Positions 11,273 through 60,831 of a stretch of 64,000 bases of DNA are shown here, in pieces. The DNA is from Acidobacteriaceae bacterium (GTDB taxonomy: Bacteria; Acidobacteriota; Terriglobia; Terriglobales; Acidobacteriaceae), in contig DATAWD010000051.1 in assembly GCA_036267395.1 (NCBI GenBank), forward strand, positions 872 through 64,871, given 5' to 3'. Under the pieces are notes generated by a model that ran no database searches, was not told where the DNA came from, and saw only the letters and a list, made by a program, of their open reading frames with translations. A program made the position numbers and the translations under genes. The first letter of the stretch is position 1. Each line of letters opens with the position of its first letter.

Positions 11273-11275
11273 GGT

Positions 11276-12529: not shown

Positions 12530-12645
12530 GAATCTGTTACTCCTGTGTGAAAGAGTGCACGAAAAACATACACGGATGTATATTGACCTAAGATTCTGAC
12601 GGTCCCCCGCCCGATGCAAAATTCGCACGGAGATCCCACCAGCGC

Positions 12646-21891: not shown

Positions 21892-21901
21892 GGAAGTCTT
21901 C

Positions 21902-23500: not shown

Positions 23501-23515
23501 CCTCTCCCAAAAGGG

Positions 23516-23529
23516 GGGGCGGTAGCCCC
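23516..23529. terminator. Weak candidate bidirectional terminator hairpin (GGGGC-GGTA-GCCCC)
   Basis: The only stem-loop in the 33-nt gap between convergent glpD (stop 23500) and the GH130 gene (stop 23534). No U-tract. Confidence 0.25.
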
Positions 23530-23533
23530 ATCC

Positions 23534-24655
23534 TTAGCGCCGTGCCGGCTCGTGCCGCATCGGCGCCGTCACCACGCCCACAAACGAATCGGCGCAACCA
23601 TAATAGAGAACCCATTGGCCGTGGAACGCCACCAACCCTTCCGCAAACGTGGTCCCCGCCACATACTGGCCGCTCCTTTCCCAGGGCATCGTCGGCTCCA
23701 GCACCGGATTATCTGTGCGCGCCAGCAGCTTCGCCGGATTCTTCGCATCGAACAATGCCTCTCCAACCGCGTACGTGCTGGGCGCCAGCCCCGGATCGCC
23801 CCCGGAGTTCGCATTCTTTCCGTTGTAGAGAACTACGATGCCGCGACTCGTCAGCACCGGAGGCGGCCCCGTCTCCGGAAAAGAGCTGTCGAATCGCCCC
23901 GGCCGCGGCCGCAGCACTTCCACCGGGGTCCCGTGCTTGTCCTCCACCGGCGTCCAGTGGATCAAATCCGGCGACGTCGCCAGATGAATCGCTCCCTCAC
24001 CCCAGTACATCCAGTACTTGCCCTCGATCCGAGTCGCAACCAGGCGCCCATCCCGCAGCTCCGTCACAATCCCCGCAGATTTGTATTTCAGCTGCGCGTA
24101 CTTCCCACCCTCCGCATCCAGAAAAGCCGGCCCGTGCTTTGTCCAGTGCACCAGATCCCGCGACGTGGCGATGCCCACCGAATACGTCTTGCGGTTCCAC
24201 TGCGTATACGTCAGCACATAGATTCCATCCCCGCTCTCCACAATCCGCGGATCCTCTACCCCTCCCGGCCACTCGCGACTCTTCTGGTCGTCCTCGGCCG
24301 GATAGAACACCGGCTCCCCCCGCCGTGTGAAGTGAATGCCGTCGCTGCTCTCCGCCAGCCCCAGCCGCGACGTGTGCATCCCGATCTGCATTTCTCCCGT
24401 GTTGTCCTCGGCGCGGTACAGCACGTCAATCTTCCCATCGCGCACCACCGCCGCCGGGTTGAACGTGTGCAGCGCCTCCCAGTGCACCGGCGCTTTGCGA
24501 ATCGGATCCTGAAAGACCGACGCAGGGTTCGGCGTTATCACCGGATGGTCCTCCGCGGGCCGCGCAAACGGGACAATCTCCCAACCACGCTGTACCGTCG
24601 GTGCCCCGGCCACGAACCCTACAACCACCGCCAGCAACAATGACCTGATTCTCAT
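23534..24655 (-). CDS. Exported GH130-family glycosidase/phosphorylase-like protein (DUF377 beta-propeller)
   Basis: Start at ATG 24655 (MRIRSLLLAVVVGFVAG, signal peptide). Has HTFNPAAVVRDGKIDVLYRAED, RLGLAESSDGIHF, GGVEDPRIVE, IYVLTYTQWN and VGIATSRDLVHWTKHG. Confidence 0.85.
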   Translation of the reverse strand: MRIRSLLLAVVVGFVAGAPTVQRGWEIVPFARPAEDHPVITPNPASVFQDPIRKAPVHWEALHTFNPAAVVRDGKIDVLYRAEDNTGEMQIGMHTSRLGLAESSDGIHFTRRGEPVFYPAEDDQKSREWPGGVEDPRIVESGDGIYVLTYTQWNRKTYSVGIATSRDLVHWTKHGPAFLDAEGGKYAQLKYKSAGIVTELRDGRLVATRIEGKYWMYWGEGAIHLATSPDLIHWTPVEDKHGTPVEVLRPRPGRFDSSFPETGPPPVLTSRGIVVLYNGKNANSGGDPGLAPSTYAVGEALFDAKNPAKLLARTDNPVLEPTMPWERSGQYVAGTTFAEGLVAFHGQWVLYYGCADSFVGVVTAPMRHEPARR

Positions 24656-24666
24656 CGCTCTCCCGC

Positions 24667-26298
24667 TTATTTTGCCGCCCCGCAACTGGCCCTGCCCCCA
24701 TCCAGCGCCAGGGAAAAGCGCCGGGCTCCCTCATCGTCAGGAGCAAACAGCAGGACGCGGCGAAGTGTCTTTTCCGCCGCAGCAGGATCGCCCTGCCGGC
24801 ATTGGGTGACAGCCAGATCGACGCCAGCCGTGCTGGACCCCGGATCATCCCCGAAGACCTTCGCCAGCAAAGGCGTCACCGCCACAAAATTTCCCTGCCG
24901 CGCGTCGAGAATCGCCAGATCCGCTGCTGCGGTCGCATTCCACGGATCGGCATGCAGAGCCTGCTGATACTCGGCGGCGGCGCGCGCCCGGTCTCCGTTA
25001 GCCTGCTCCAGAAAGCCCAGATTCACATGCAGGTCTGCATCCTCGGCCTGCTTTGCGTCGGAGCTCTCGGCCTGCAGCAAAAGATTCAGCGCGCGCTCCC
25101 CCGCCGCCTGATCGCCCCGCAGCGCCAGTGACGCCCATGCGATCCCTTCGTCTCGCACCGTAGGCTCGCTCCCGCCAATCGCAACCAGTTCCCCGCCCGT
25201 GTTCGCACGATGGAACGGCTTGCCCGGAATCTGAATCCGGTGATCCGTCACCTGCTCGTGCGCGATATCCTCGGTCGCTTGCCGCGGCATATGGCACGCC
25301 GTGCAGTCGGGATTCTCCGCATGGTGACCGGACGCCAGCCCCGTATGGCATGACAGGCAGCGCGCCCGGTAATACGCAACACGATTTTCCGCCGCCACCG
25401 TCGCGTGGGGATCATGGCAGGTCGTGCACGTCATCCGATCGCCGCTGGCTCGTTTGCACGCGCTTTCCAGCAGCGATTCCCACTGGCTCGTCGCCCGTCC
25501 TTCCGGCCCGATCTTCCGCCCATCTTCGAAATATACCGCCTCGTCGAACAGATTGTCCCCGGGACGAAACGCCCCCAGCTTCTGTCCCTGCTTGACCACC
25601 GCCACTTCCCCTTCGAGGTGGCATTCAAGGCAGATGGATTCGCGGCGCAAACCGGTCAGCTTCGCAGGATCGATCATCGGCTCCCGCCCACCACTCGCCA
25701 GATGCCGCGTCCCATCGCCATGGCAGGCTTCACAGGTGATGCCGCCATGCGGAAATGGCGCCCCCGCAAACTTGTTCCGCGCTTCGGGCAGGGACGCCCG
25801 CACGTCGCTGGCGTGACAGTGTAAACATCCTGAATCGACCGGTAGCGTAAATGGCATCGACTGCGCCTGCAGATAGTGCGGCGTCATATCCCACATATGC
25901 TTCTTCGCGTACCAGTTGATCGGGATTTCGTACCAGTAGCCCTCCCGCTCGTAGATCCACGTCCGCCCCCGGCGCCCTGACCCCAGATAGAAGAGCAGCA
26001 ACTGCCTCCCCTTGAGTGCACGGTCCGGCGCTGCATTGGGCCTTTCGTACGAAAGCCACACCTGACCGTGATCCAGCTCCATCCGGTAATGCACACCTGA
26101 AGGCGCGTGCGTGAAATCCGCAGGGATAAAGCCCTCGGCGGCCGGTCCGCTCGCCTCCGCCATCGGCGTGCGCTTCCACGATTCATAAATCTTCTGGTGA
26201 CACGACGCGCAACGCGCATCCGAATCCTGCGCCCGCGCGCAGCGCACCCCGAGCAACAATCCGGCGATCATCACCACGACAGCGACATGCCTGCGCAT
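24667..26298 (-). CDS. Exported heptahaem c-type cytochrome fused to C-terminal TPR repeats
   Basis: 543 aa with a signal peptide. Seven CXXCH motifs (CASCH, CLHCH, CEACH, CLECH, CTTCH, CLSCH, CTACH). The last roughly 170 aa are TPR-like (..LGFLEQANGDRARAAAEYQQALHADPWN..). Confidence 0.85.
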   Translation of the reverse strand: MRRHVAVVVMIAGLLLGVRCARAQDSDARCASCHQKIYESWKRTPMAEASGPAAEGFIPADFTHAPSGVHYRMELDHGQVWLSYERPNAAPDRALKGRQLLLFYLGSGRRGRTWIYEREGYWYEIPINWYAKKHMWDMTPHYLQAQSMPFTLPVDSGCLHCHASDVRASLPEARNKFAGAPFPHGGITCEACHGDGTRHLASGGREPMIDPAKLTGLRRESICLECHLEGEVAVVKQGQKLGAFRPGDNLFDEAVYFEDGRKIGPEGRATSQWESLLESACKRASGDRMTCTTCHDPHATVAAENRVAYYRARCLSCHTGLASGHHAENPDCTACHMPRQATEDIAHEQVTDHRIQIPGKPFHRANTGGELVAIGGSEPTVRDEGIAWASLALRGDQAAGERALNLLLQAESSDAKQAEDADLHVNLGFLEQANGDRARAAAEYQQALHADPWNATAAADLAILDARQGNFVAVTPLLAKVFGDDPGSSTAGVDLAVTQCRQGDPAAAEKTLRRVLLFAPDDEGARRFSLALDGGRASCGAAK

Positions 26299-26299
26299 C

Positions 26300-28165
26300 T
26301 CAGACCTTCTTCATCTCCGGAAGGCGGTATACCTCCGGCTCTTTGCCGCCCTCGTGCAGGACGTACAGGCGATCCACCGCGAGATGCTGATACGTATCCA
26401 ACTGCCCCGAAGGCCAGCGCACCTCCACCGACTCGGCAATATCCGCCTCGCCCAGGCCGAAGTGCAGCCGCAGATCGCTCTGCGAATAGTAGCCGCCGCC
26501 GCTGCGCACCTCGTCCAGCAGCAGCATCGGCTTCGCCTGATTAGACTGCGTCTTCGCCCGCACTCGAATCTGCGCGCCGATCCCGCTGCGATTCGACCGT
26601 ACGCCCACCACCCGGAACCGGATCCAGTGATGCTGCAGCTTCGACTCACAGTGCAGCAGTTGCGGCAGGCTGTTCATGCAGTTCACCACCACATCCAGCC
26701 GCCCATCGTTGTCGTAATCGCCAAAGGCGCACCCGCGCGCCGGAACCGCGGCTGTAATGCCGGGCCCGCCCAGAGCGCTCACGTCATCAAAACGCCCATT
26801 GCGAAGATTGCGATACAGGTATTTGTGCTCCGCGTAGGGTGCCTCGGTCTTTACGCTGTTCACCTCGGGATACACGTGCCCATTGGCCACCAGCAGATCG
26901 AGCCAGCCATCGTTATCCATGTCGAAGAAACCGATGCCCCAGCCCAGATAGCGGGTGTTCATGCCCAGTCCCGCCTGATACGTGCGGTCTTCGAAGTTGA
27001 ACCCGCCCAGATTTGCATACAGCGAATCGGTATCCCCGGCAAAGTTGGTCTTCGCGATGTCCAGCAGCCCATCGCGGTTGTAATCCCCCACCGTCACGCC
27101 CATACCCGCCTGCGGCTTCCCATCCGGCGAAAACGCCACACCGGCTTCAATGGCGACATCGCGGAAAGTGCCATCCTTCTGGTTCTGGTACAGCGTCGCC
27201 GCGGTCGAATCGTTCGCTACATAGATGTCGGGCCAGCCATCGTTGTCGAAATCCGCCACCGTCGCACTCAGCGCGTAATTGCCATACGTATCCCAGATGT
27301 TTGCCTTCGCCGATACGTCGGTGAAGGTCCCGTTCCCATTGCTGTGGTACAGGATGTTTTTCCCCGGAGCCAATCCCGGCGGCCCGCATGCCACCAGAAT
27401 TCCCTTGTACAAGCAGGGCCCCGACTCCGGCAGCGGTGCTGTCTTCAGATCGAGATCGATGTAGTTGCCGACGAACAGATCCAGGTGGCCGTCGCGATCG
27501 TAATCAAGAAAAGCGCAGCCCGAGTTCCACCGCTGCTTCGACTGCAGCAGGCCCGCTTTTGCCGTCACATCGGTAAACGCTCCGTTGCCGTTGTTGCGAA
27601 ACAGCGCGTTCTGTCCGTAATAGGTCACGAACAGATCATCCCAGCCGTCATTGTCGTAATCGCCCACGCAGCAGGCCTGACCCCATCCGCTGCGCGCCAG
27701 CCCCGCCCTCGCCGTCACGTCGGTAAACGTTCCGTCGCGATTGTTTTTGAACAGATGGCACGTCGGCTCCGTGCCTTTGGGAAACCCCTCCAGCCGCCAG
27801 CCATTCACCAGGAAAATATCCAGCCATCCGTCCTGGTCGTAGTCATAGAAGGCGACCCCGCAGCCCGTTGTCTCCAGCAGATATTTGTTAGTGTGCTCGC
27901 CGCCAAAAATCGTCTTTACGTTCAGCCCCGACGACTCGGCCGCATCCACAAACTGTACCTCCAGCGGCGTTCCCGCAATCGGCGAGGCCGGCCCAGGAGG
28001 CGGCGGCATCGGCCGGGCATTGTAGGTTTGCTGAGCCCCCGGCTTCTGCTGCGCCGACACCAGCACATCTCGTCTCCACGGTGGCGTGGCCAGCCACAGA
28101 ACCTCCGCGAACGGGAGCACCACGGCGGTGCGGCAAAGCGACTCAAGAAAATTGCGACGATTCAT
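26300..28165 (-). CDS. CRTAC1-family protein (FG-GAP/VCBS repeats + ASPIC/UnbV domain)
   Basis: ATG 28165 gives MNRRNFLESL (Tat-like RRxFL). Repeated Ca-binding-type motifs DYDQDGWLD, DYDNDGWDD, DYDRDGHLD, DFDNDGWPD, DMDNDGWLD and DYDNDGRLD. C-terminal GGGYYSQSDLRLHFGLG (UnbV/ASPIC hallmark). Confidence 0.9.
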   Translation of the reverse strand: MNRRNFLESLCRTAVVLPFAEVLWLATPPWRRDVLVSAQQKPGAQQTYNARPMPPPPGPASPIAGTPLEVQFVDAAESSGLNVKTIFGGEHTNKYLLETTGCGVAFYDYDQDGWLDIFLVNGWRLEGFPKGTEPTCHLFKNNRDGTFTDVTARAGLARSGWGQACCVGDYDNDGWDDLFVTYYGQNALFRNNGNGAFTDVTAKAGLLQSKQRWNSGCAFLDYDRDGHLDLFVGNYIDLDLKTAPLPESGPCLYKGILVACGPPGLAPGKNILYHSNGNGTFTDVSAKANIWDTYGNYALSATVADFDNDGWPDIYVANDSTAATLYQNQKDGTFRDVAIEAGVAFSPDGKPQAGMGVTVGDYNRDGLLDIAKTNFAGDTDSLYANLGGFNFEDRTYQAGLGMNTRYLGWGIGFFDMDNDGWLDLLVANGHVYPEVNSVKTEAPYAEHKYLYRNLRNGRFDDVSALGGPGITAAVPARGCAFGDYDNDGRLDVVVNCMNSLPQLLHCESKLQHHWIRFRVVGVRSNRSGIGAQIRVRAKTQSNQAKPMLLLDEVRSGGGYYSQSDLRLHFGLGEADIAESVEVRWPSGQLDTYQHLAVDRLYVLHEGGKEPEVYRLPEMKKV

Positions 28166-28185
28166 GGGGAACGACAATGCCCATC

Positions 28186-29934
28186 CTACGGTGTTTTCGT
28201 TGTCAGCGTCTCCGCTTTTTGCCGCTCGCCTGCAGCTTCGGTCATGCGCCCCTGCTGCGCCAGCGCTGCCGCCAGTTGTCGGTGTGCCTCGGCATACTCC
28301 GGATCGCTCCCGATCGCATCCCGATAATCCGCGATCGCATCCGCTATCTGCCCCTTGCTCAGCAGCACATTGCCCGCATTCGTGGAAAAGACCGCACGCT
28401 GACGGTTCACCGCCACCCGCGTCAGCGTCGCCGCCTGCTTCCGCTCTGCTATGGCTTCAGCCGTCTTCCCCTGTTCCTGGAGAACGCCGGCCAGCGTGAT
28501 ATGCGGACCCGGCTGCTGCGGAAGCAGCTCAATTGCCTTCCGCAAGGCTTCCGCTGCTTCGTCGTATTTGCCCTCTTGCCGATAAATGCTGCCCAGCGTC
28601 GACCACCCATCGCCGTTCTCCGGGCGAACTGCCAGGGCTGCGCGCAGGTTCTTCACCGCCTCGTCGAACCGCCCCGCCTGCATGTACAGGATGCCCAGAG
28701 TGTACGGCGCGTCCGGCGAATCCGGCGCGATCCTGATCGTTGTCTCCAGCTCGCGAATCGCATCCGGCAAATCGTCCTTGAGCTTGTAGGCCAGGCCGAG
28801 GTCGTAGTGCAGCAGCGAGTTCTCCGACGCAATCTTCAGCCCCGCCTGCAGCTGCACAATCGCGTCGTCGACGTCGCTTTCCTGTAGATAGGCAGCTCCC
28901 AGATCCAGATACACCGACGAATTCTGCGGATCCAGCCCCATCGCTCGCTGATACAGCGGAATCGCTTCTTTCGCCTTCCCTGTCTGTACCAGCGCCAGAC
29001 CCAGATTAATCAGCGGCTCCGCCTCCGTAGGACGAGCCGCCGCCACCTTCTGAAACAGGGGCAGTGCATCCCCCGACCGTCCCACCCGCTGCAGCCCCAA
29101 AGCCAGTTGGTACTCCGCGTTAGTGTCCCCGGGATTGAGCGCCATCGCCTGTTGATAATGCGGGATGGCATCCCCATCGTCCCCGCTTGCCGTCAGAACA
29201 TTGCCCCATTCGTACTGCACCGCCGCATTGCGGGGATCCAGCTCCGCTGCCCGGCTCATCTCCGCTGCAGCGCGCACCGGCTGCTGCTCATGGCTCAGCA
29301 CCACTCCGAGATGCATATGCGCCGACACCAGATGGGGATCGATTTGCAGAGCGGCACTGAAAGCAGCGTCCGCCGCTCCCCACTCCTCCTTCTGCGCCTC
29401 TAGTGAGCCGAGCTGATCCAGCAGCAGCGCATTGCCCGGATCCGCCGCTGCCGCGCGGTGCATCACGTCGATTGCCGCATCGGTTTGTGATGTTGCCGCC
29501 AGATCGCGGGCCCACAAGGCCAGCATCTCTGCATCCAGCGGAGAATCGTGATCCATCCGTTCCAGCAAAGCCGCGCCCTGCTGTGCCGATCCCGCCTGGC
29601 TGTACGCTCGGGCCAGGTCCTCCTCGACTGCGCGATCGTCAGGCTTCAGCCGCAGGGCCGTCTCCAGTTCCGCGATCGCGCCTTCAAAATCTCGCTGCGC
29701 ATACAGCACCACCCCCAGCGCCGCATGACCCTCTTCAATATCGGGCGCCAGCTTCACCGCTTCGCTGAATTGCGCTCGCGCCGTCTTCAGGTCTCCCTGA
29801 GCGTAAGCCGCGCTTCCCGCGCGAAACGCCGCACTGGCCTCTTCGATTGGCTTTTTCTGGGCCGCGCACACCGCGCATCCGGCGAGCAGCCAGACGCTTA
29901 CCGCCATACGCCATCGATCTGAAGTCAGACCCAT
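28186..29934 (-). CDS. Exported tetratricopeptide-repeat protein (possible lipoprotein)
   Basis: About 580 aa. N-terminal MAVSVWLLAGCAVCAAQ. More than 12 consecutive 34-aa TPR units (..AIPLYQRAMGLDPQNSSVYLDLGAAYL..). Confidence 0.85.
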   Translation of the reverse strand: MGLTSDRWRMAVSVWLLAGCAVCAAQKKPIEEASAAFRAGSAAYAQGDLKTARAQFSEAVKLAPDIEEGHAALGVVLYAQRDFEGAIAELETALRLKPDDRAVEEDLARAYSQAGSAQQGAALLERMDHDSPLDAEMLALWARDLAATSQTDAAIDVMHRAAAADPGNALLLDQLGSLEAQKEEWGAADAAFSAALQIDPHLVSAHMHLGVVLSHEQQPVRAAAEMSRAAELDPRNAAVQYEWGNVLTASGDDGDAIPHYQQAMALNPGDTNAEYQLALGLQRVGRSGDALPLFQKVAAARPTEAEPLINLGLALVQTGKAKEAIPLYQRAMGLDPQNSSVYLDLGAAYLQESDVDDAIVQLQAGLKIASENSLLHYDLGLAYKLKDDLPDAIRELETTIRIAPDSPDAPYTLGILYMQAGRFDEAVKNLRAALAVRPENGDGWSTLGSIYRQEGKYDEAAEALRKAIELLPQQPGPHITLAGVLQEQGKTAEAIAERKQAATLTRVAVNRQRAVFSTNAGNVLLSKGQIADAIADYRDAIGSDPEYAEAHRQLAAALAQQGRMTEAAGERQKAETLTTKTP

Positions 29935-29948
29935 CACCCGCAGTTCCG

Positions 29949-30974
29949 CTAATGCTGCGAGGAGGCCGCTCCGGTCGCCCCCTGCATTTTCTCGACGATT
30001 TGAAATTCCCGCTGAGCCTCGTCTTTCCGTCCGCTCACCGCAAACGCCCGCCCCAGCAGCATATGGGTCATCGGATTCGATGGATCCATTGCCTCAGCAT
30101 GCTTCAGATACAGTGCCGCCATCACGGGATCGTGCTGCTCCAGCATCGTCTTGCCCAGCAGGATATACGGCCCGCTGGCATCCGGCTCCAGCAGCACCGC
30201 GCGATCCAGCGCCTGCTGTGCTCGATCCAGCTGTCCCTGGCGCAAATACGCGTCGCCCATCCGATTGTAGGTCTCGCCATCCAGCGGATTCACCTTTTGC
30301 TCCTGTTCCAGTTCCGCGATCGCTCCCGGCACGTCGCCCTTCGCCAATGCGATCTCCCCCAGCAGCCGATGCGCGAGCGGAAGACGCGGATCCAGAGTCA
30401 GCGCTCGCTGCGCCGCCGTCGTCGCCTGTGCCGTCAGTTCCTGACGGAACAGCATGCGCCCGCTGAACAGCCAGGCGGCCGCCGAATCCGGCGCAAAGCC
30501 ATATTGCGCCGCGAACGCGTGCCGCGCATCGTCGTACCGGCCCGTCGCAATGTAGCACAGCGCCAGCACGTAATTCGGATCCGCATTCGCGATCGGCGCC
30601 GACGAATGCGCCTTCTCCAGAATCGGAATCGCCTTCTCCGGCAGATTCATCCGAAACAGTACAATCCCCCGCATCTGCATCGATTGCAGATCCGAAGGAT
30701 CCTGCTCCACCGCGCGGGTGAAGTCGCCTTCCGCCTCGGCCATGTGGTTCTGCTGGTAATCCACGATGCCCCGCAGCCGCTCCACCCCCGCCGCTTCGGG
30801 ATGCTCCGCCGCCAGCGCATCCAGCTCGCGCAGCGCATCGTCCAGTTTTCCCTGGGCCACCAGGTCCCGGGCGCTGGCCACGCTCGCGCTGCCGCTTGTC
30901 GGAGGATTTTGGGCCGGAACCCCCGCGGTCAGCACCGCTAAGGCAACGACTGAGAGCCAGGCACACCAACGCAT
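29949..30974 (-). CDS. Exported tetratricopeptide-repeat protein
   Basis: 341 aa. Signal peptide MRWCAWLSVVALAVLTAGVPAQ, with TPR units throughout. Confidence 0.85.
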   Translation of the reverse strand: MRWCAWLSVVALAVLTAGVPAQNPPTSGSASVASARDLVAQGKLDDALRELDALAAEHPEAAGVERLRGIVDYQQNHMAEAEGDFTRAVEQDPSDLQSMQMRGIVLFRMNLPEKAIPILEKAHSSAPIANADPNYVLALCYIATGRYDDARHAFAAQYGFAPDSAAAWLFSGRMLFRQELTAQATTAAQRALTLDPRLPLAHRLLGEIALAKGDVPGAIAELEQEQKVNPLDGETYNRMGDAYLRQGQLDRAQQALDRAVLLEPDASGPYILLGKTMLEQHDPVMAALYLKHAEAMDPSNPMTHMLLGRAFAVSGRKDEAQREFQIVEKMQGATGAASSQH

Positions 30975-31048
30975 GATGCCGGAAGTCTACTCCACAAAAG
31001 CAAACGGAGGAGAGCTGGGCTCTCCTCCGTGTTGGAGGTTGAGACAGG

Positions 31049-34000
31049 TTAGAACTGCATGCGTAGCGAGAACTGCAGCTGCCGCGGGTTCGTGTAAATC
31101 CCCAGCGCCGGTTCTCCCGTGATGTTCCCGTCTGACCCGGTATTCGTCGACGACGGATTGCCCGCATTGATGTGGTTGAATGCGTTGAAAGCGTCGAGTC
31201 GGAACTGCGCCGTCAGACTTTCACGTATCGGGAAATTCTTCGCCAGCGAAAGATCCGTGTTGAAGTATCCCGGCCCCATGAAGCTGTTCCTGCCGATGTT
31301 TCCGATCGTATCCAGCGGCGCTTCCGTATACGAGGTGGTGTCGGCAGCTTTGAAAAACGTCCGGCTGTGCGTCTGCGCATTAAACCCGGACAGGCTCGTG
31401 TGCAGCGCGCTCCGCTTGCCCTCCGGATAACACGGTGCGCTTCCCGGTACCGAGTCGCCGCAACCCGATCCCAGACCCAGCGACCACGGCAGTCCGTTGG
31501 ACCAGTTCAGCACCGGACTCAGCTGCCATCCGCCGATGATCTCGTCCTCCCACTTCGTCGCATTGCCGGCAATCATCTGGTTCTTGCCAAAGGGCAGCTG
31601 ATACAGCCCAAAGATCACCAGTTGCTGCGTGCGCAGAGAATCGTCCGGCCCGTAGCCGGCCTGTTTGCTCCACGTCGCATATCCGCCGTTGTAGTTGAAC
31701 GAACGCTGCCACGCATACTGGACGTTGCCTGACAACCCATGGGTGTACTGCTTCGCCAGCGTCACATCCAGCGCGTCGAAGCTGGTGTTCTGGTCGTCCC
31801 CGTCAAACTGGATCCCCTGCGTCCACCCGCACATGCCGGGCGTAATCATCGCCTCGTTCTGAGCCATGAGTGCCGCTTCATAGCCTGGATCCGTACAGGC
31901 TGTCGTCCCACCGCCATAGAACCGCGACAGGAAGTTATTCGTCGAAGTTCCTCCGTCCGCCGCAATCACGCCACCCGCAACGCTTCCGTCGTAGTGCAGC
32001 GGAGCTCCGTTCACGCTGTATTGCTGCGGCAGAAAGATACCTGCCTCGTTCGGGTTCGTGCTGTTCCCGTCGCCGTTGCTCAGGGTATGCGTTCCCTTGT
32101 TCCCGATGTAAGCCGCCGTCAGCGACAGCGTCGGCGTCAGCGCCCGCTGCACGCTCAGGTTCCAGGCGTCCAGCGTTGGCAGCCGCAGGCTGTTCGGCCG
32201 TGCCTTCGGACCCACCGCGTATCCGGGCGTCGCCAGCAGACCATCCGATGGCACCGTCGGGAACTGATAGGCCGGCGGTCCCGCCGCCAGCGAAAACGCG
32301 CTCCCTGTCGTGGTCGCGGCCGTCAGTGACTGGTTGGCCAGCACCGGCAGGTTCTGTGTCACCGTATGTCCGAAGATCGATCCGAAGACTCCCATATCGA
32401 AGCTTCGCCCGTAGCCCGCGCGCACCACCGTTTTCGAGTTCAGCGACCAGGCAATGCCCATTCGCGGGTTCCACCCGTTGGTGTTCATGTCCCATCCCAT
32501 GTTGGTCGGGATGCTGCCGTATCCGGCGACGCGCAGATACCCATCCGTGCTGTATCCGTTGACGCCGTCGTTCATCTCCATCAGCGATCCGTTGCCTTTG
32601 CCGTTCACTGACTCCGGGAAATACATCTCGTACCGAAGGCCGTAGTTCACCGTCAGAGAAGGTGTCGGGTGCCACGTGTCCTGCGCGTAGAAGAAGTCCC
32701 TCTTCTGGAACTCCTTCGCATTCGTGGAAACGCTCACGTACCGGTTAAAGCTGGTTACATCGCCCAGCAGGAAACTGGCCATGCCCAGGCCGCCTGTGGC
32801 TCCGTTGTCTGAGGTTGGCCCTGGAGCAAAGTTCAGCAGGCCGGTCCGGTCGTTGTCGCTGGGCACCCGCAGGTTGCGCGCGTACCGCACGTCCACTCCG
32901 AACTTGAAGGCGTGGTTCCCTTCGATCCGGGTCCAGTTGTTCACGATCTGGAACTGATCCTCGCGCTCCGTCAGCGGGCAGTTGCAGCGCGTGATGTTCA
33001 GTCCCGAACCATACTCCGCTCCGCCGCCCGTCGGGTTGCTTACACCCTCGTTGCCGGATCGGTCCGCGTCACCCACGTTGAACCCAGGCGCGCCGCTCGT
33101 GAAGCTGTCTCCCAGGTTCATCCCCGGAATGCCCAGCTGGTTGGCGAACTGCGTGCTCTGGTCGTACTTCTGGTCGCCGATGTTGTACCGGTAGTAGCCG
33201 ATCCGCCAGTCCATCAGCAGCTTGGGATTGATCGCGATGTCCATCCCGGCCGCCAGACTGTCGTTCGCGCCCTGTGAGACGCCACCGTATCCGCCGATGC
33301 CGAAGCCCGGGCCGCCCGCCGCTCCAAAGATTGTCGAGCCCGACAGCGTGTCCGTGAACCGGCTGAACCGCGTGAAGGCGTGCATGCCGCTTGTAATCTG
33401 GTCATCCACGCGTACGTCCCACTGGTTATTGTTAAACAGCCCTGTGCCGCTGGCCGAATAGTTGTTCTTCAGGCCCGCGAGGTTGTTCGCGCCCACCGTG
33501 CCCCCGCTGTTCGGAGCATAAGGAGCCAGCAGCTTCAGCAGGGCCAGCGCCTGCGGCGAAAGCTGCGCCGTCGGAATCACGTTGCCCGGGTACGCCACGG
33601 ATCCGCCCGGCGTCTGCTGATAGATAAGCGGCGTATTGGGGTTGCCGGTGATCCCCAGCGCGTATTCGCTGAAGTCGCAGCCCGCAATCCCGTTGCTTGC
33701 TGTCGCCGTGCCCAGACAGGTCGAAACCAGATGCGCCGTCGGAACCGACGCCGTCTCCGCTGTGCCGACCTTCTGCCGCACGCCCTGGTAGTCGCCGAAG
33801 AAGAACAGCTTGTCCTTCAGAATCGGCCCCCCGATCGATCCGCCAAACTGGTTCTTCAGCCCTGGGGGAAAGATCGTGCCCGGGAACTGCGTGTAGGGAT
33901 CGCGTCCCAGATTCGCGCTGCTCTCCCGATAATCAAAAACGCTGCCGTGGAAGTTGTTCGATCCCGACTTGGTCTGCACCGAGATGAACGACGAAACCGC

Positions 34001-34708
34001 CTTCCCAAACTCTGCGTCGTAGTTCTGCGTGGTGATCTTCGCCTCGGAAATCGCGTCCAGCGGCGGGTTGATCACGATAATTCCAAGAATCGGATCCTGG
34101 TTGTCCGTGCCGTCCAGCTGATACGCCACACCGCCGAATGCCTGCCCGTCCACCTGGATCTGCTTGCTGGCCTGCGGGTTCTCATCCGCCGCATGGCTCC
34201 AGCCCAGCGACTGCGCGCCCGGCAGCAGCAGCTGCATGTTCGTGAAGTTCCGATCCGGAATCGGCATGTTCTCGATCTGCTTGGTCGTGAACTCGACCGC
34301 CACGTCGGCCCGGTCCGTCTTCAGCTCCGGAATGTCGTTCGCGCTCACCGTGATGGTCGTCGACGCGTTGCCCGTCTTCAGGGACGCGTCGATCTTCGGC
34401 GAACTGTCGGCCGCCACCGGCACGCCATCCGCTTCAAACGACTGGAAGCCGCTGGCTTCCACTTTCACGTTGTAAGTGTCGGGAATCAGGTGCTCGGCTG
34501 TGTATTCGCCGGACGCGTTCGACTGAACTTTAACTGAGGTGTTCTTGGAGACGTCGGTGATCGTAACCGTCGCGTTCGGAACTACGGCGCCGCTTGGGTC
34601 CGTTACCGTTCCGTAGATAGAACCATAGACCGCCTGTGCATGAGACAGGCTGGAAAAACACAAAGCAATGGCCAAGCCAAAGGCTGGCAGCAGCCTCGTC
34701 AATCGCAT
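31049..34708 (-). CDS. TonB-dependent outer-membrane receptor with N-terminal carboxypeptidase-regulatory-like domain
   Basis: 1219 aa with a signal peptide. Then AVYGSIYGTVTDPSGAVVPNATVTITD (CarboxypepD_reg), a plug region and a long beta-barrel ending ..QLQFSLRMQF. GGGAGGA lies 5 nt upstream of the ATG. Confidence 0.92.
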   Translation of the reverse strand: MRLTRLLPAFGLAIALCFSSLSHAQAVYGSIYGTVTDPSGAVVPNATVTITDVSKNTSVKVQSNASGEYTAEHLIPDTYNVKVEASGFQSFEADGVPVAADSSPKIDASLKTGNASTTITVSANDIPELKTDRADVAVEFTTKQIENMPIPDRNFTNMQLLLPGAQSLGWSHAADENPQASKQIQVDGQAFGGVAYQLDGTDNQDPILGIIVINPPLDAISEAKITTQNYDAEFGKAVSSFISVQTKSGSNNFHGSVFDYRESSANLGRDPYTQFPGTIFPPGLKNQFGGSIGGPILKDKLFFFGDYQGVRQKVGTAETASVPTAHLVSTCLGTATASNGIAGCDFSEYALGITGNPNTPLIYQQTPGGSVAYPGNVIPTAQLSPQALALLKLLAPYAPNSGGTVGANNLAGLKNNYSASGTGLFNNNQWDVRVDDQITSGMHAFTRFSRFTDTLSGSTIFGAAGGPGFGIGGYGGVSQGANDSLAAGMDIAINPKLLMDWRIGYYRYNIGDQKYDQSTQFANQLGIPGMNLGDSFTSGAPGFNVGDADRSGNEGVSNPTGGGAEYGSGLNITRCNCPLTEREDQFQIVNNWTRIEGNHAFKFGVDVRYARNLRVPSDNDRTGLLNFAPGPTSDNGATGGLGMASFLLGDVTSFNRYVSVSTNAKEFQKRDFFYAQDTWHPTPSLTVNYGLRYEMYFPESVNGKGNGSLMEMNDGVNGYSTDGYLRVAGYGSIPTNMGWDMNTNGWNPRMGIAWSLNSKTVVRAGYGRSFDMGVFGSIFGHTVTQNLPVLANQSLTAATTTGSAFSLAAGPPAYQFPTVPSDGLLATPGYAVGPKARPNSLRLPTLDAWNLSVQRALTPTLSLTAAYIGNKGTHTLSNGDGNSTNPNEAGIFLPQQYSVNGAPLHYDGSVAGGVIAADGGTSTNNFLSRFYGGGTTACTDPGYEAALMAQNEAMITPGMCGWTQGIQFDGDDQNTSFDALDVTLAKQYTHGLSGNVQYAWQRSFNYNGGYATWSKQAGYGPDDSLRTQQLVIFGLYQLPFGKNQMIAGNATKWEDEIIGGWQLSPVLNWSNGLPWSLGLGSGCGDSVPGSAPCYPEGKRSALHTSLSGFNAQTHSRTFFKAADTTSYTEAPLDTIGNIGRNSFMGPGYFNTDLSLAKNFPIRESLTAQFRLDAFNAFNHINAGNPSSTNTGSDGNITGEPALGIYTNPRQLQFSLRMQF

Positions 34709-35076
34709 AACCGTCCTCCCGAAAAAAGTTACAGCTCTCTTAGTGCGCTTCCTGTACCGCGGTCAGGAGCGTCATCGGTTTACATTCCACAGAGAATTAA
34801 GCCCGAGATAGGGAGATGACCGACTGCTTGCCCGTATCGACAGCCCGGGACACATCTCGTAAAGAATCCAGATCGAGCCCATCTACTGCGGTGAAGGTGA
34901 CTTGCAGAGCCGCTGAGGAAGCTGGGAAGGCCCTGCGCATCGGTACGTCAGTACTTCTGGTTCTCCGGACTGTAGGCAACCGAGTGGTCGTTTGTCAAGG
35001 TGAGAACGAATCCCCGGCTCCCGCAAATTCTTTCGATCGACACTTAACGAGGTTTATCCTCTACTAAATCGATTTC

Positions 35077-35697
35077 ATGCCCCTGTTGCACTTTATGCTA
35101 CCCATGGTAAGGTTCAAGTCGATGTTTTGTCGTCTTCTCGCTACCGCGTTCCTCGCCCTTCCCGTCCTTGCCTTCGCCGCCCAGCCCTTCGGCACCGACC
35201 TCCACGGCCAACCCCTCGATCGCCTCGCGCCACCCGGCACCAAAGCCGTCGTTCTCTTCTTCGCCGCATCGGACTGCCCCATCTCCAATCGCTACATTCC
35301 TGAAATCGAGCGCCTGCAGCGCGCCTACGTCACCGACGGCGTCCGCTTCCTCTGGGTCTATCCCAATCCCGCTGATACCGCGCCTGTCGTGCGCGCGCAC
35401 GACCAGCAATTCAGCATCTCCGCTGATGCCGTCCTCGATGTGAACCAGCGCCTGACCGCCCTGGCTCATGCCACCATCACGCCCGAAGTTGCCATCCTGG
35501 TGCCTGCTGCCTCCGGCTGGCGCGAGGTCTATCGCGGCCGTATCGACGACCGTTACATCGCCCTCGGGCAGGAACGTCCCCACGCCATGAAGCACGATCT
35601 TGAGCTCGCCATTCGCGCCGTCCTTGCAGACCAGCGTGTGCCCGGGCCCGGAGGCCCCACCGTCGGTTGCTCCATCGTGCCCCGCAACGAGCAATGA
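35077..35697 (+). CDS. Exported thioredoxin-fold (redoxin/AhpC-TSA-like) protein with single-Cys CPIS motif
   Basis: 206 aa from ATG 35077 (alternative ATG 35122 gives MFCRLLATAFLALPVLAFAAQ). Has KAVVLFFAASDCPISNRYIPEIERL, and then TPEVAILVP..GWREVYRGRIDD follows the thioredoxin-fold pattern. Confidence 0.75.
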   Translation: MPLLHFMLPMVRFKSMFCRLLATAFLALPVLAFAAQPFGTDLHGQPLDRLAPPGTKAVVLFFAASDCPISNRYIPEIERLQRAYVTDGVRFLWVYPNPADTAPVVRAHDQQFSISADAVLDVNQRLTALAHATITPEVAILVPAASGWREVYRGRIDDRYIALGQERPHAMKHDLELAIRAVLADQRVPGPGGPTVGCSIVPRNEQ

Positions 35698-37904
35698 AAA
35701 ATCTGCGACTCGTTCCGCTGGCGCTCGCCGCCTGCGCCCTGCTTTGCCTGCCAACGCTGCATCGCACCACCCATGCGGCCGAAGCTCCCGTTACCTGGAG
35801 CCGGCAGATCGCCCCCATCGTCTACCAGCACTGCTCTACCTGCCATCACCCCGGCGGCGGCGGTCCTTTCAACCTCCTCACCTATCAGGACGCGCGCCGT
35901 CGCGGACCGCAGATGGTCCAGGTCACCCAGTCCCGCTTCATGCCCCCCTGGCTGCCCCAGCCCGGCTACGGCGACTTCGTCGACGACCGCCGCATCAGCG
36001 ACGACGACATCGCCCTCATCCGCCGTTGGGTCGCTACCGGCATGCCCCAGGGCAACCCATCTCAAGCACCCCCCGCTCCGCACTACAACGCAGACTGGCA
36101 AATCGGCAAGCCCGATCTCGTTCTCACCGTCCCCCGCTCCTTTACCCTGAAGGCTTCGGGCACCGACGTCTTCCACAACTTCATCCTCCCCAATCCCCTC
36201 ACCCAAACCCACTACATTCGCGCCATGCAGATTCTCCCCAGCGTCCCTCAGGTCGTGCATCACGCGAATGTCCTCATCGACCGCACCGCTTCCTGGCGGC
36301 ACGCCCATCCCTCTGACTGGCAAAATGGTTTCGGCGGCATGGAGCTGGAAGTCGATGCCGGCAATATCTTCGATCCCGACAGCCACTTCCTCTTCTGGAA
36401 GCCCGACACGCCTGTCCTCTACGAACCACCCGGCATGCCCTGGCGCCTCGATCCCGGCAACGACCTCATCCTCAACATGCACCTCAAGCCCAGTGGCAAG
36501 CCCGAGATCATCAGCGCCCGCATCGGCCTCTACTTCGCCGATACGCCCGCTAAGCAACACCCCATGCTGCTCCAGCTCGATGCCGACGAGCAGCTCAACA
36601 TTCCCGCCGGCGATCGCAGCTTCGTTGTCCAGGATTCGCTCCGCCTGCCCCTCGATGTCGAAGCCCTCGGCATCTATCCCCACGCCCACTATCTCGGTCA
36701 CATCCTCGAAGGCTGGGCCGACTTGCCTAACGGTCACAAAAAGTGGCTCATCCGCATTCCCAACTGGGACATCGATCGCCAATCCGTTTTCCGCTACCGC
36801 ACCCCGGTCTTTCTTCCCCGCGGATCGGTGCTGCACATGCGCTACGTCTACGACAACTCCGAAGACAACGTCCATAATCCAAATGACCCGCCCATCCGCG
36901 TCCGCGCCGGCAACCGCTCCGTCGACGAGATGGGCCACCTCTGGATTCAGGTCCTGCCCCTTCACGTGCCCCCCGGCAGTCCCGACCCGCGCCTCATCCT
37001 CGAAGAGGCCTGGATGGAACACCGTCTGACCAAAGTCCCAGGCGACGACATCGCGCTCTACAACCTGGCTTCCGCCCAGGCCGGACTCGGCCACTACACC
37101 GAAGCTGCTGCCGACTATCGCAAAGTCCTTAGCACCCATCCCGGCGACCCACGCACGCTCAACAGCCTTGGCGCGGCTCTCGAAAATGCAGGCGATTCTC
37201 AGGCCGCCGCCGGCGCCTTTACTCAGGCCATCGACTCCGGTGCTCCCAGCTGTGATGCACGCTTCAACCTCGCCCAAATGGATCTCAAGCACAGCGACTT
37301 CCAACCGGCCGAGCTGCAATTCCGCCAGATGATCCAGCATTGCCCCGACGACCCCGATGTCCACAGCGGCCTCGGCGTCGCCCTTACCGAACAGGGCAAT
37401 GCCACCGCCGCCCAGCCCGAGTTCCAGCGCGCCCTCCGGCTCGATCCGACGAACTTCACCGCTCTTACGCAGCTCGGCCAGGCAGACATCGAATCGGGCC
37501 AGCCGCAGCAGGCCATTCCACTCCTGCAAACCGCCGTTCAGCAGCAACCTGACGATCTCCAGACGCGCGAACGCCTGGCCATGGCCCTTTCTCAGTCCGG
37601 CCGCGGCGACGACGCTCTCCGGCAGTTGCGCGAAGCCGCCCTCCGCTCGCCCGCCGATCCTGAAGTGCACGCGCTGCTCGCACAACTCCTCAACGCCAGT
37701 GGACAGCTCCCCCAGGCCATTGCCGAGCAGCGCCAGGCGCTTCACTTGCAGCCCGACGACGCCGACGGCTGGAATAATCTCGGTGTCCTCGAAGCCCGCT
37801 CTGGCCTCAATGCCGCCGCCCGCGCGGATTTTCTCCGCGCTTTGCAGCTCAATCCCAGCCACGCTCAGGCCCGAGCCAACCTCAGTCGCCTCCCCCCGCG
37901 GTGA
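35694..37904 (+). CDS. Exported fusion: c-type haem domain + PHM/DBH-like copper type II monooxygenase-like domain + TPR repeats
   Basis: ATG 35694 overlaps the upstream stop (ATGA). Signal peptide present. CSTCH at nt 35832-35846, VVHHANV (HH at 36258-36263), NMHLKP, YPHAHYLG (HxH at 36681-36689) and SVDEMGHLW (36924-36932). The last roughly 290 aa are TPR. Confidence 0.75.
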   Translation: MKNLRLVPLALAACALLCLPTLHRTTHAAEAPVTWSRQIAPIVYQHCSTCHHPGGGGPFNLLTYQDARRRGPQMVQVTQSRFMPPWLPQPGYGDFVDDRRISDDDIALIRRWVATGMPQGNPSQAPPAPHYNADWQIGKPDLVLTVPRSFTLKASGTDVFHNFILPNPLTQTHYIRAMQILPSVPQVVHHANVLIDRTASWRHAHPSDWQNGFGGMELEVDAGNIFDPDSHFLFWKPDTPVLYEPPGMPWRLDPGNDLILNMHLKPSGKPEIISARIGLYFADTPAKQHPMLLQLDADEQLNIPAGDRSFVVQDSLRLPLDVEALGIYPHAHYLGHILEGWADLPNGHKKWLIRIPNWDIDRQSVFRYRTPVFLPRGSVLHMRYVYDNSEDNVHNPNDPPIRVRAGNRSVDEMGHLWIQVLPLHVPPGSPDPRLILEEAWMEHRLTKVPGDDIALYNLASAQAGLGHYTEAAADYRKVLSTHPGDPRTLNSLGAALENAGDSQAAAGAFTQAIDSGAPSCDARFNLAQMDLKHSDFQPAELQFRQMIQHCPDDPDVHSGLGVALTEQGNATAAQPEFQRALRLDPTNFTALTQLGQADIESGQPQQAIPLLQTAVQQQPDDLQTRERLAMALSQSGRGDDALRQLREAALRSPADPEVHALLAQLLNASGQLPQAIAEQRQALHLQPDDADGWNNLGVLEARSGLNAAARADFLRALQLNPSHAQARANLSRLPPR

Positions 37905-38049
37905 GCCGCGCTGACGTGGTAGCATTTCACCCTGCCTTGCCCCTTCATCGCACCGCTTACGGCGCCGTGATTCAACACTCTCGCCAGCCGCGTTCCCTGC
38001 CATCGGTTCGCACTGGATCCCAACTTTGTTCCTTCGGAGAGAGACAACG

Positions 38050-47968: not shown

Positions 47969-48086
47969 CCCGCCTGCGTCCCCCTTCTCCCATTTTGCCG
48001 AACCTTCGCTTCCGGCAACCCTATACGGTAGTCTGCTAGAGGCGCCCTGCAATCGGCTCAGTTCCGCGGAGTGCTCGCCCACGCGT

Positions 48087-52855: not shown

Positions 52856-52915
52856 CATACCCTGCCTCCCGCCGCTCGGTCGCGCATCCACCGATTGCCG
52901 CGCTCATCCGTTACC

Positions 52916-60545: not shown

Positions 60546-60831
60546 GGCGAGATCTCTTCCTTCGTTGAGCTTCACGCTGCCTGCCCTTGCACCAGGCGTG
60601 CAATCCAGCCGTCGGGTTGGCGCATCGTGCGGCGCCCACTCCTAGGGTTAAGTCAGTGTCGCTCGGATTGATGATGGTCACGTCAGTGATTCACTTTCAA
60701 TGACCCCAGGGGTACCCTCAGCTACAACTACCCTGGCCGGCGCCTGGCACTTTCGTTGCAGTCGGCACCCCGGAGAAACGGGTCATCTGTCCCGAATCTG
60801 ACGCCGCGCTTCCAGAATCCAACGCACGTGC

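Follow-up and report, generated by a model that had tools for sequence, protein, structure and literature searches.

A recurrent five-gene set around a heptahaem cytochrome, an Oar-class transporter and a CRTAC1-like propeller in Acidobacteriaceae

What could bring an outer-membrane transporter, two tetratricopeptide repeat (TPR) proteins, a CRTAC1-like beta-propeller, a multihaem c-type cytochrome and a glycoside hydrolase of family GH130 together in a single run of genes? The question is raised by a stretch of 64,000 nucleotides (nt) from an Acidobacteriaceae bacterium (assembly GCA_036267395.1, contig DATAWD010000051.1, positions 872 to 64,871; referred to here as the window), where six open reading frames (ORFs) of the minus strand fill positions 23534-34708. 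A preliminary description of this DNA had taken them for a tight six-gene operon of exported proteins; its coordinates are identical to ours, and the genes, gaps and domains that it listed were all recovered by ORF calls and by Pfam and NCBIfam matches. Five of the six genes form a unit that recurs among the Acidobacteriaceae, a family that dominates acidic soils and peat. We favour, with a probability of about 0.45, the reading that this unit encodes a five-protein envelope module, in which the transporter would import a substrate, the propeller and the cytochrome would act on it in the periplasm, and TPR domains would dock the parts together. A full-text literature search found no published description of a module made of a transporter, TPR proteins, a CRTAC1-like protein and a heptahaem-TPR cytochrome.

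A recurrent set of five genes

A scan of one genome per species returned at least 544 loci encoding relatives of the cytochrome. The best 80 of these, all from Acidobacteriaceae or unclassified Acidobacteriota and with cytochrome identities of 49-88%, were studied by tblastn with the window proteins, and their ~1,050 ORFs were clustered all against all. Across the 80 loci the neighbourhood of the cytochrome gene has no more than five recurrent families, namely the cytochrome itself, the TonB-dependent transporter (TBDR), the propeller and the two TPR proteins of 341 and 583 amino acids (aa; TPR341 and TPR583), and the clustering revealed no conserved gene beyond these; the small families that also recurred comprise housekeeping and sugar genes without relation to the set (DnaJ-domain, ParB, Gfo/Idh/MocA, dihydroxy-acid dehydratase, a GH5-like protein and GH13). 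When partners were counted at orthology-grade identity thresholds in the 60 loci with full 10-kb flanks, a TPR341 orthologue was present in 48, a transporter orthologue in 47, and TPR583 and the propeller were found in 38 and 35, respectively; at least three partners occurred in 44 loci and all four in 25. The identity of these partners (50-90%, versus ~25-30% for chance paralogues) climbs with that of the cytochrome (Spearman 0.43-0.63). GH130 was present in 13 of the same 60 loci and the redoxin encoded divergently upstream in 18. The proposal that TBDR, TPR proteins, CRTAC1 and multihaem cytochrome belong together is thus upheld as a five-gene core, whereas GH130 has to be withdrawn from it: the unit consists of five genes plus lineage-specific accessories, and GH130 is an optional one of the latter.

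At least four gene orders were found among the loci. The order of the window, TBDR-TPR-TPR-CRTAC-CYT (CRTAC, propeller; CYT, cytochrome), occurs in its closest relatives, the commonest one is CRTAC-...-CYT-TBDR-TPR-TPR, and further arrangements are CYT-TBDR-TPR-TPR(-CRTAC) and TBDR-GH130-TPR-CYT. A reciprocal search from the propeller orthologue of the isolate Acidobacterium sp. S8 agreed with the grouping, giving CYT-TBDR-TPR-TPR-CRTAC, GH130 being absent and the genes standing 298, 78, 1 and 23 nt apart. Among cultured strains, Acidicapsa dinghuensis 4GSKX also has the five-gene unit, and Alloacidobacterium dinghuense has at least its cytochrome. Throughout these arrangements TBDR-TPR341-TPR583 are almost always contiguous, with the TPR341 orthologue nearly always directly 3' of the transporter gene, whereas the propeller is mobile and lies at times several kb away with unrelated genes in between. 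The conservation expected of this neighbourhood is therefore seen in its gene set and not in the gene order of the window. Since re-association recurs in different orders, a functional link among the five genes is favoured over inherited synteny. Unconserved order, or cytochrome and CRTAC1 homologues routinely found alone, had been named beforehand as reasons to give the cluster up, and from the recurrent re-association we judge that they do not overturn the five-gene core. One lineage carries a second, more divergent CRTAC1-like paralogue (~50% identity), convergent with and directly downstream of the cytochrome gene (L039, L051, L054, L055, L057, L061, L075 and L079, at ~11.6-13.4 kb), and in some of these loci it accompanies a ~75% orthologue located upstream.

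The cytochrome family extends far beyond these loci. A search with its 400-aa haem domain gave 4,809 clusters at 50% identity (E<=1e-3), 1,248 of them with E<=1e-30. TPR repeats are retained in six of the seven members examined at 35-44% identity, and all seven CXXCH motifs are kept in an alignment of 14 relatives (mutual identity 48-56%) of the distant member P0221, some of them annotated as Gemmataceae. Both the seven haem motifs and the TPR tail persist at 35-40% identity. We examined 83 loci of distant cytochrome-TPR homologues, 80 of which are metagenome contigs: the distance between the cytochrome gene and a CRTAC1-like gene is at most 300 bp in 21 of them, and in 7 of the 24 that have at least 2.5 kb on both sides. 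The association suspected in the preliminary description thus reaches beyond the Acidobacteriaceae, part of these loci being planctomycete-like, as a pairing that is recurrent and non-universal. The link with the transporter is an acidobacterial feature, and two planctomycete-like loci read DUF1559-CRTAC-CYT-TPR, with the transporter gene absent. Another propeller/c-cytochrome neighbourhood is found in non-anammox clades, where a CRTAC1-family gene lies between homologues of the haem-containing subunits of hydrazine synthase (PMC12758564).

Some of the distant contigs deserve a separate mention. In planctomycete-like ones CRTAC-CYT-TPR is immediately preceded by a DUF1559/N-methyl (pseudopilin-like) gene (L137, 6659-14053; L148, 6867-13073; also L081 and L083), which stands in the place that the TonB-dependent transporter occupies in Acidobacteriaceae; given the very large number of DUF1559 genes that such genomes contain, this adjacency may be due to chance. 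Another product of L137, of 1003 aa, joins a weak TPR match to FG-GAP and UnbV domains. An acidobacterial-like metagenome contig (L136, 1-21752) contains two transporter/TPR/multihaem/CRTAC sets together with a LacI regulator, a GH30+CBM6 gene and a GH5/GH39-like gene; its extra multihaem proteins (392 and 421 aa) are without the TPR tail, and separate TPR genes adjoin them.

Table 1. Positions in the window of the cluster genes, their control elements and the divergent neighbours.
Feature	Position	Strand	Basis
Putative sigma-70-type promoter (TTGACA, 18 nt, TACAGT)	34969..34998	-	Best promoter-like match in 23000-35700
5' leader of the transporter gene	34709..34962	-	Conserved blocks in alignments of relatives
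Predicted TonB-dependent transporter (TBDR), Oar subclass, 1219 aa	31049..34708	-	PF13620 + PF25183
Terminator-like/attenuator hairpin	30994..31030	-	12-bp GC-rich stem + U-rich tract
TPR341, exported TPR protein, 341 aa	29949..30974	-	TPR families only; Sec-type leader
TPR583, TPR lipoprotein, 583 aa	28186..29937	-	TPR families only; lipobox LLAG|C
Predicted CRTAC1/UnbV-family calcium beta-propeller, 625 aa (621 aa from ATG at 28165)	26300..28177	-	FG-GAP_3 x6 + UnbV_ASPIC; Tat motif
Heptahaem c-type cytochrome with TPR tail, 543 aa	24667..26298	-	7 CXXCH
GH130; likely start ATG at 24655	23534..24685	-	PF04041; BT3780-like beta-1,2-mannosidase subgroup
Redoxin-like exported protein, facultative partner	35077..35697	+	AhpC-TSA, Redoxin, borderline
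745-aa exported haem/TPR protein, facultative partner; likely start ATG at 35694	35667..37904	+	Motifs, TPR

The transporter, the propeller and the cytochrome

The transporter is a predicted member of the Oar class of TonB-dependent outer-membrane transporters, a subclass defined by an N-terminal CarboxypepD_reg extension (PMC6434023), because it carries this defining trait: PF13620 matches residues 30-110 with 73.2 bits against a cut-off of 32.3. Its barrel is covered at full length by PF25183 (OMP_b-brl_4, 596 bits), and the classical TonB-receptor barrel model PF00593 reaches 18.8 bits, under its cut-off of 27; the orthologue from Acidobacterium sp. S8 has a PF00593 record that is not marked as weak. 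A TonB-box-like sequence, TTITVSA, occupies residues 117-123, with T118 and V121 invariant and A123 nearly so in 13 orthologues, and a strict TonB-box regular expression matches only 17 of 49 full-length transporter orthologues. Residues 110-260 are plug-like by eye only (PGA..., DG... and TKSG motifs). The protein resembles Oar of Myxococcus xanthus (PMC6434023) in having the PF13620 extension ahead of a large barrel and a TonB-box-like motif. It gave no Plug HMM match and no sequence-level match to any solved transporter, searches of the PDB with a single sequence or with a 13-sequence profile finding no relative. The genes associated with Oar are those of ExbB, ExbD and TonB, and the window transporter is linked instead to TPR, propeller and cytochrome genes. 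Most of the many Oar-class transporters of Acidobacteriaceae lack an assigned substrate or partner. As for the two TPR proteins, their Pfam and NCBIfam matches are to TPR families only, which amounts to 924 aa of stand-alone TPR, in agreement with the ~920 aa first estimated.

The N-termini of the six products, read by eye, all carry an export signal, as had been claimed: TBDR, TPR341, cytochrome and GH130 have leaders of Sec type, TPR583 has a lipobox and the propeller a Tat motif. A class of transporter that serves in Myxococcus for secretion of the PopC protease (PMC6434023) invites the question of whether traffic could run outwards, with the transporter, which has the defining Oar architecture, delivering the propeller, the cytochrome and perhaps GH130 to the cell surface and the TPR proteins acting as periplasmic chaperones or adaptors; a surface cytochrome could then reduce or oxidise extracellular humic or particulate organic matter. 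The co-encoded proteins have signals that target them to the periplasm only, yet they are of kinds often exposed at the surface in other bacteria, and the fold of the propeller resembles lectins and the matrix protein Bap1. A role as secretion chaperone is classical for TPR proteins, those encoded here match in part the PilW, Tgl, GltE and SycD-type models of NCBIfam, each below cut-off, and expressed porin/propeller/multihaem clusters have been reported in peat Terriglobales (bioRxiv 10.64898/2026.05.27.727921). We nevertheless consider secretion unlikely, given that a single Oar-class transporter has been shown to secrete protein and that the members of this very large subclass are mostly assumed to be importers. 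Moreover, the planctomycete-like loci hold the propeller-cytochrome-TPR trio without a transporter gene, and the hairpin that follows the transporter gene (see below) implies an excess of transporter over cargo, which an importer with accessory proteins would fit at least equally well.

The propeller is the most conserved partner of the cytochrome (69-93% identity) and, from its sequence, is assigned to the CRTAC1/ASPIC-UnbV family, with matches to FG-GAP_3 (182.6 bits in six stretches), FG-GAP (71.7) and UnbV_ASPIC (71.6), all over cut-off, and with an E of 3.1e-18 to CRTAC1 in phmmer. An AlphaFold2 model (pLDDT 70.6, pTM 0.79) was aligned by Foldseek with murine CRTAC1 (9etn) over 590 columns (E 3e-27, TM 0.64/0.71), and weaker fold matches were obtained with aldos-2-ulose dehydratase, integrin alpha subunits, fungal GlcNAc lectins and Vibrio Bap1. 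The protein thus shares with its family, which includes the enediyne cassette protein E4, an FG-GAP calcium propeller followed by a C-terminal UnbV_ASPIC domain and the fold of murine CRTAC1; it departs from it in being a predicted Tat substrate, with the motif MNRRNFL nearly invariant in 24 orthologues, in having a cytochrome as partner and in lying outside an enediyne cluster. In this regard, close homologues are named 'CRTAC1 family protein' at NCBI and 'enediyne biosynthesis protein E4' at JGI, the latter being the UnbV of Pfam's name; no enediyne gene-cluster context occurs at the propeller locus, and a literature search on enediyne UnbV yielded unrelated papers only. The residues kept across diverse cytochrome-adjacent members are mainly Asp, Gly and Asn of the calcium loops, together with C255/C264, H434 and R481.

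The cytochrome carries its CXXCH motifs, all seven of them kept in two alignments of relatives, at residues 30, 158, 189, 223, 291, 314 and 332. A beta-rich insert (residues ~50-125) separates haems 1 and 2, and a TPR domain occupies ~380-535 near the C-terminus. In an AlphaFold2 model built from 16 sequences only the insert and the TPR tail are confident; both Foldseek with this model and a cytochrome profile search against the PDB matched TPR proteins only, and no PDB relative of the haem part was found. Haems 2-4 are locally similar to the DmsE and GSU2203 decahaem families; the NCBIfam models of these families give 53.6 and 43.4 bits, their cut-offs being 325 and 192. Compared with carriers of the MtrA/DmsE/NrfB type, it is likewise a c-type cytochrome with a Sec leader, closely spaced CXXCH motifs and this similarity over haems 2-4, and it differs from them by its seven haems, the ~80-residue beta-rich insert after haem 1 and the TPR tail. 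Outside the CXXCH motifs, M46, H199, C281, H298, M337, H347 and H353 are conserved in both the acidobacterial and the planctomycete-type subfamilies as candidate distal ligands, from which we infer seven putative ligands for seven haems if the lone cysteine is counted; C281, within ESACKRxSGD, is strictly conserved in both subfamilies and might be a haem ligand.

A barrel, a beta-propeller and a multihaem cytochrome encoded together call to mind a porin-cytochrome conduit, where the barrel would house the cytochrome and respiratory electrons would cross the outer membrane as in MtrAB or the extracellular electron transfer (EET) clusters proposed in peat Acidobacteriota. EET1, a porin/NHL-propeller/13-haem cluster proposed in peat Terriglobales with a function inferred from synteny (bioRxiv 10.64898/2026.05.27.727921), has formally the same trio, in the same bacterial order and habitats; many of the metagenome-assembled genomes (MAGs) related to the window are of peat origin, and the local similarity of haems 2-4 to decahaem cytochromes points the same way. 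We find this explanation very improbable indeed. All component families differ from those of EET1, with an Oar-type barrel, an FG-GAP/UnbV propeller and a 7-haem TPR fusion in place of an MtrB-like porin, an NHL/DUF5128 propeller and a 13-haem cytochrome, besides two extra TPR proteins in the module; the barrel, with its N-terminal extension, TonB-box-like motif and weak PF00593 match, is no plain porin; there are seven haems and not ten, and the beta-rich insert and TPR tail would not thread a barrel; and the NCBIfam scores given above are far under their cut-offs. The comparison with MtrCAB fails likewise at the TonB-type N-terminus of the barrel, at the 7-haem cytochrome and at the missing extracellular partner: among the 42 ORFs called in the window there is no second multihaem protein, the sole other CXXCH being that of the 745-aa protein encoded upstream. 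Identity of the module with the porin-cytochrome system of freshwater Verrucomicrobia (PMC5615132) or with the peat clusters EET1-4 was likewise considered and rejected, these being different systems.

Promoter, leader and hairpin

From 5' to 3', the gaps between the six genes are of 74, 11, 8 (20 with the ATG at codon 5), 1 and -19 nt (11 with the ATG at codon 11 of GH130, which is preceded by GGGAG), so that the cytochrome starts 1 nt past the stop codon of the propeller. The intergenic space shared with the divergent genes contains a promoter-like sequence in the correct orientation, ~250 nt ahead of the start codon of the transporter. Its -35 (TTGACA) and -10 (TAnAGT) boxes, 17-18 nt apart, are invariant in 11 of 11 aligned relatives and their flanks have diverged, and because both boxes are invariant amid diverged sequence, the pattern supports a conserved sigma-70-type promoter with a ~250-nt leader as the probable driver of the cluster. 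Neither the gathering thresholds of Rfam over the whole window nor E<=1 over the leader gave a match to a riboswitch or other RNA element, and RNAalifold with four close relatives found too little covariation for a structural call. In a sub-group of the loci (L007-L017) a hairpin GAGAGGCCGC...GGCTTTTG with a T-run lies within the leader. On the other side of the intergenic space, a perfect palindrome AAATCGATTT occupies 35066-35075 (+), with a single base between it and the start codon of the divergent redoxin. Of the 11 relatives aligned, 10 keep its core AATCGATT, and the palindrome could serve as an operator or in the control of translation.

This promoter region also bears on a role in metal acquisition, where the transporter would import a ferric chelate and the periplasmic cytochrome would free the iron by reduction. 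Ferric siderophore import is the classic role of TonB-dependent transporters, a periplasmic reductant beside the transporter would suit reductive release, and a redoxin gene lies divergently upstream. Iron uptake is unlikely, to our mind strongly so: the promoter region shows a plain sigma-70 pattern (no formal search for a Fur box was made); a seven-haem protein is iron-costly under iron starvation; the Oar-class extension differs from the STN signalling domain of iron transducers (PMC6434023); and the calcium beta-propeller is left without a role in the scheme. Moreover, genes for siderophore biosynthesis, ABC importers, Fur or ECF/anti-sigma factors were absent from the individually annotated neighbours and from the 25 commonest families of a census of 143 neighbouring proteins.

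The first junction of the cluster is not a simple one. Within the 74-nt gap after the transporter gene there is a hairpin (z = -3.3) whose equivalent is found past the stop codon of the transporter gene in 51 of 52 relatives, with a T-run in 40 of them; stem sequences vary by lineage, for instance GGAGGAGAG, GGAGGGGAGC and GGGGGAGC within L001-L079. Hairpins after the other genes are rarer (cytochrome 6/71, propeller 3/26, TPR341 6/23, TPR583 3/31). In the window the next ATG comes only ~20 nt after the T-tract, and expression of the downstream genes would therefore need read-through, that is, attenuation, or else a promoter inside the transporter gene; in relatives where the gap after the transporter gene is of 150-300 nt a separate promoter is possible. 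Of the tight co-transcribed operon first described, the spacing of the last five genes speaks in favour and the conserved hairpin of the first junction against a simple version of it, and the cluster is best described as a predicted operon with a putative internal attenuator favouring the transporter.

A hairpin parting the transporter gene from the rest could also mean that two unrelated units merely lie side by side, one for uptake (transporter-TPR-TPR) and the other made of propeller and cytochrome, with GH130 and the redoxin pair hitch-hiking and no joint function. The contiguity of TBDR-TPR341-TPR583 while the propeller moves, as well as the propeller-cytochrome pairs without transporter in planctomycete-like loci, would be expected under such an arrangement. 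It is improbable in view of three observations: in Acidobacteriaceae the cytochrome gene lies directly beside the transporter unit in most orders, either upstream of TBDR or downstream of the TPR genes; the gaps between TPR, propeller and cytochrome genes in the window are just 11, 8-20 and 1 nt; and without selection it would be difficult to account for genes that come together again and again after rearrangement.

A proposed envelope module and its surroundings

In the import reading that we prefer, the Oar-class transporter would take up a bulky organic substrate through the outer membrane, the propeller would bind or transform it in the periplasm, and the heptahaem cytochrome would pass electrons to or from the propeller step. 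The cytochrome, proposed here as the electron partner of the propeller, is its genomic partner well beyond the Acidobacteriaceae. TPR domains, present on three or four of the proteins, would dock the soluble parts to each other and onto the transporter. To this core the genome of the window and its nearest relatives have added GH130 at the 3' end; the redoxin and the haem/TPR protein are encoded divergently upstream. The multiprotein redox complex coupled to import that the preliminary description put forward is a reasonable proposal.

With respect to the substrate, the neighbours of the module give a hint. GH130 is the commonest non-core family in the census (8 of 143 proteins), followed by alpha-amylase (4) and the regulators LacI and GntR (3 each), with AhpC-TSA in 5 of the 143 immediate neighbours. 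A glycan or glycoconjugate is weakly indicated as substrate of the transporter, because GH130, GH13, GH5-like and LacI/GntR neighbours recur and because the fold relatives of the propeller are lectin- or sugar-enzyme-like. The GH130 protein of the window (PF04041, 152 bits) clearly falls, by sequence, into the branch of predicted exported hydrolases of the beta-1,2-mannosidase type, its specificity being only predicted as it scores 467 bits with the NCBIfam model of BT3780, under the equivalog cut-off of 550; the phosphorylase models give 165 and 85 bits. Its PDB matches run parallel, with E of 1e-115 to 1e-120 for 3r67 and 5a7v and of 1e-34 for the phosphorylases. BT3780 and BACOVA_03624, its best matches in NCBIfam and the PDB, are GH130 enzymes that Cuskin and co-workers reportedly described in 2015 as beta-1,2-mannosidases, and the window protein has, unlike the cytoplasmic phosphorylases, a signal peptide.

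A TonB-dependent transporter with a carboxypeptidase-regulatory-like extension, helical-repeat or lipoprotein partners, variable glycoside hydrolases and, in some relatives of the module, sugar-type regulators are also features of the SusC/SusD loci of Bacteroidota. They are set apart from the module by the SusD family, absent from the Pfam matches of both TPR proteins, which have canonical 34-residue TPRs, and by the facultative and sparse glycoside hydrolases of the module; to our knowledge, a multihaem cytochrome is no described component of SusC/SusD loci. Reading the module as similar to a polysaccharide utilisation locus was considered and set aside, as the census backs it weakly.

Several observations weigh against the module as proposed. 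There is no characterised homologue for any of the five proteins, and TPR-mediated docking is something that we purely infer. No Plug domain (PF07715) was detected by Pfam in the whole transporter or in residues 110-260 at E<=10. The conserved residues of the propeller reveal no obvious site for a redox cofactor or redox metal, and the cytochrome model, with pLDDT <50 over the haem region, gives no structural evidence on the haem fold. At the level of genomes, the cytochrome stands without any partner in 9 (15%) of the 60 full-flank loci; the propeller is usually non-adjacent in the planctomycete-type relatives closest to P0221, being nearby in one of three contigs; and the neighbour census is heterogeneous, with 153 Pfam families in 143 proteins and glycoside hydrolases in a minority.

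A bolder version, which we hold as doubtful if worth stating, is that a TonB-powered transporter wired to a heptahaem cytochrome-TPR protein and a CRTAC1-like propeller represents a previously unrecognised class of envelope machine, of either import or export type. In an import machine the periplasmic redox step would possibly be obligatory for capture or processing of the substrate; in an export machine the cytochrome-propeller pair would possibly be installed on the surface for electron exchange with the organic matter of soil and peat. If true, the propeller-cytochrome pair would be an ancient core that Planctomycetota share and would offer a first functional handle on the bacterial CRTAC1/UnbV family. 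The module pairs an Oar-class transporter with a multihaem cytochrome as a concrete five-gene unit, and supplies a genomic partner for two large families, the heptahaem-TPR cytochromes and the CRTAC1/UnbV propellers. A functional link would bear on the processing of complex organic matter and on the coupling of periplasmic or surface redox chemistry to TonB-dependent transport; failing such a link, the module still serves as a marker set for annotation.

The nearest database relatives of the cluster's products come from Acidobacteriaceae MAGs (88-93% identity). Upstream of the cluster, three divergent genes of the plus strand encode the redoxin-like protein, with borderline matches to AhpC-TSA (26.6 bits) and Redoxin (25.4 bits), the 745-aa TPR protein and an 852-aa glycosidase-like protein. 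The gene of the 745-aa protein adjoins the cytochrome gene in several orders (L005, L006, L011, L013, L039, L063, L064 and L072). The protein has one CXXCH, then a domain of ~300 aa with the pattern HH...H...HxH...M, which is kept in five homologues, and then a C-terminal TPR; its profile matches are to TPR and, weakly, to Cytochrome_CBB3 only. Residues 1-478 or the 295-aa core gave no Pfam match at E<=10, the N-terminal part gave no NCBIfam match outside TPR, and a five-sequence profile found no PDB relative. The copper monooxygenase first seen in this neighbour has accordingly lost its basis in Pfam, NCBIfam and PDB profiles, and what is left of it is the His/Met pattern and one CXXCH.

On the opposite side, glpD and glpK (20365-23500) are convergent with the cluster and face GH130, and a MacB-type permease gene comes next on the strand of glpD/glpK. 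Other sugar-active genes of the window encode the 852-aa GDE_C/MGH1-like protein of (alpha/alpha)6 type (38026-40584), an MGH1-like glycosidase (46298-48082), a GH31 (52895-55681) and a pectate-lyase-like/SGL protein (61445-63940). A complete RND efflux set, unrelated to the cluster, is found at 6645-12628 (-) with its outer-membrane factor, AcrB-type pump and membrane-fusion protein. Finally, a 562-aa ORF at 58887-60575 (-) matches only low-complexity models of coiled-coil type (YtxH, Apolipoprotein, MCP signalling region) and may encode a repetitive envelope or stress protein.

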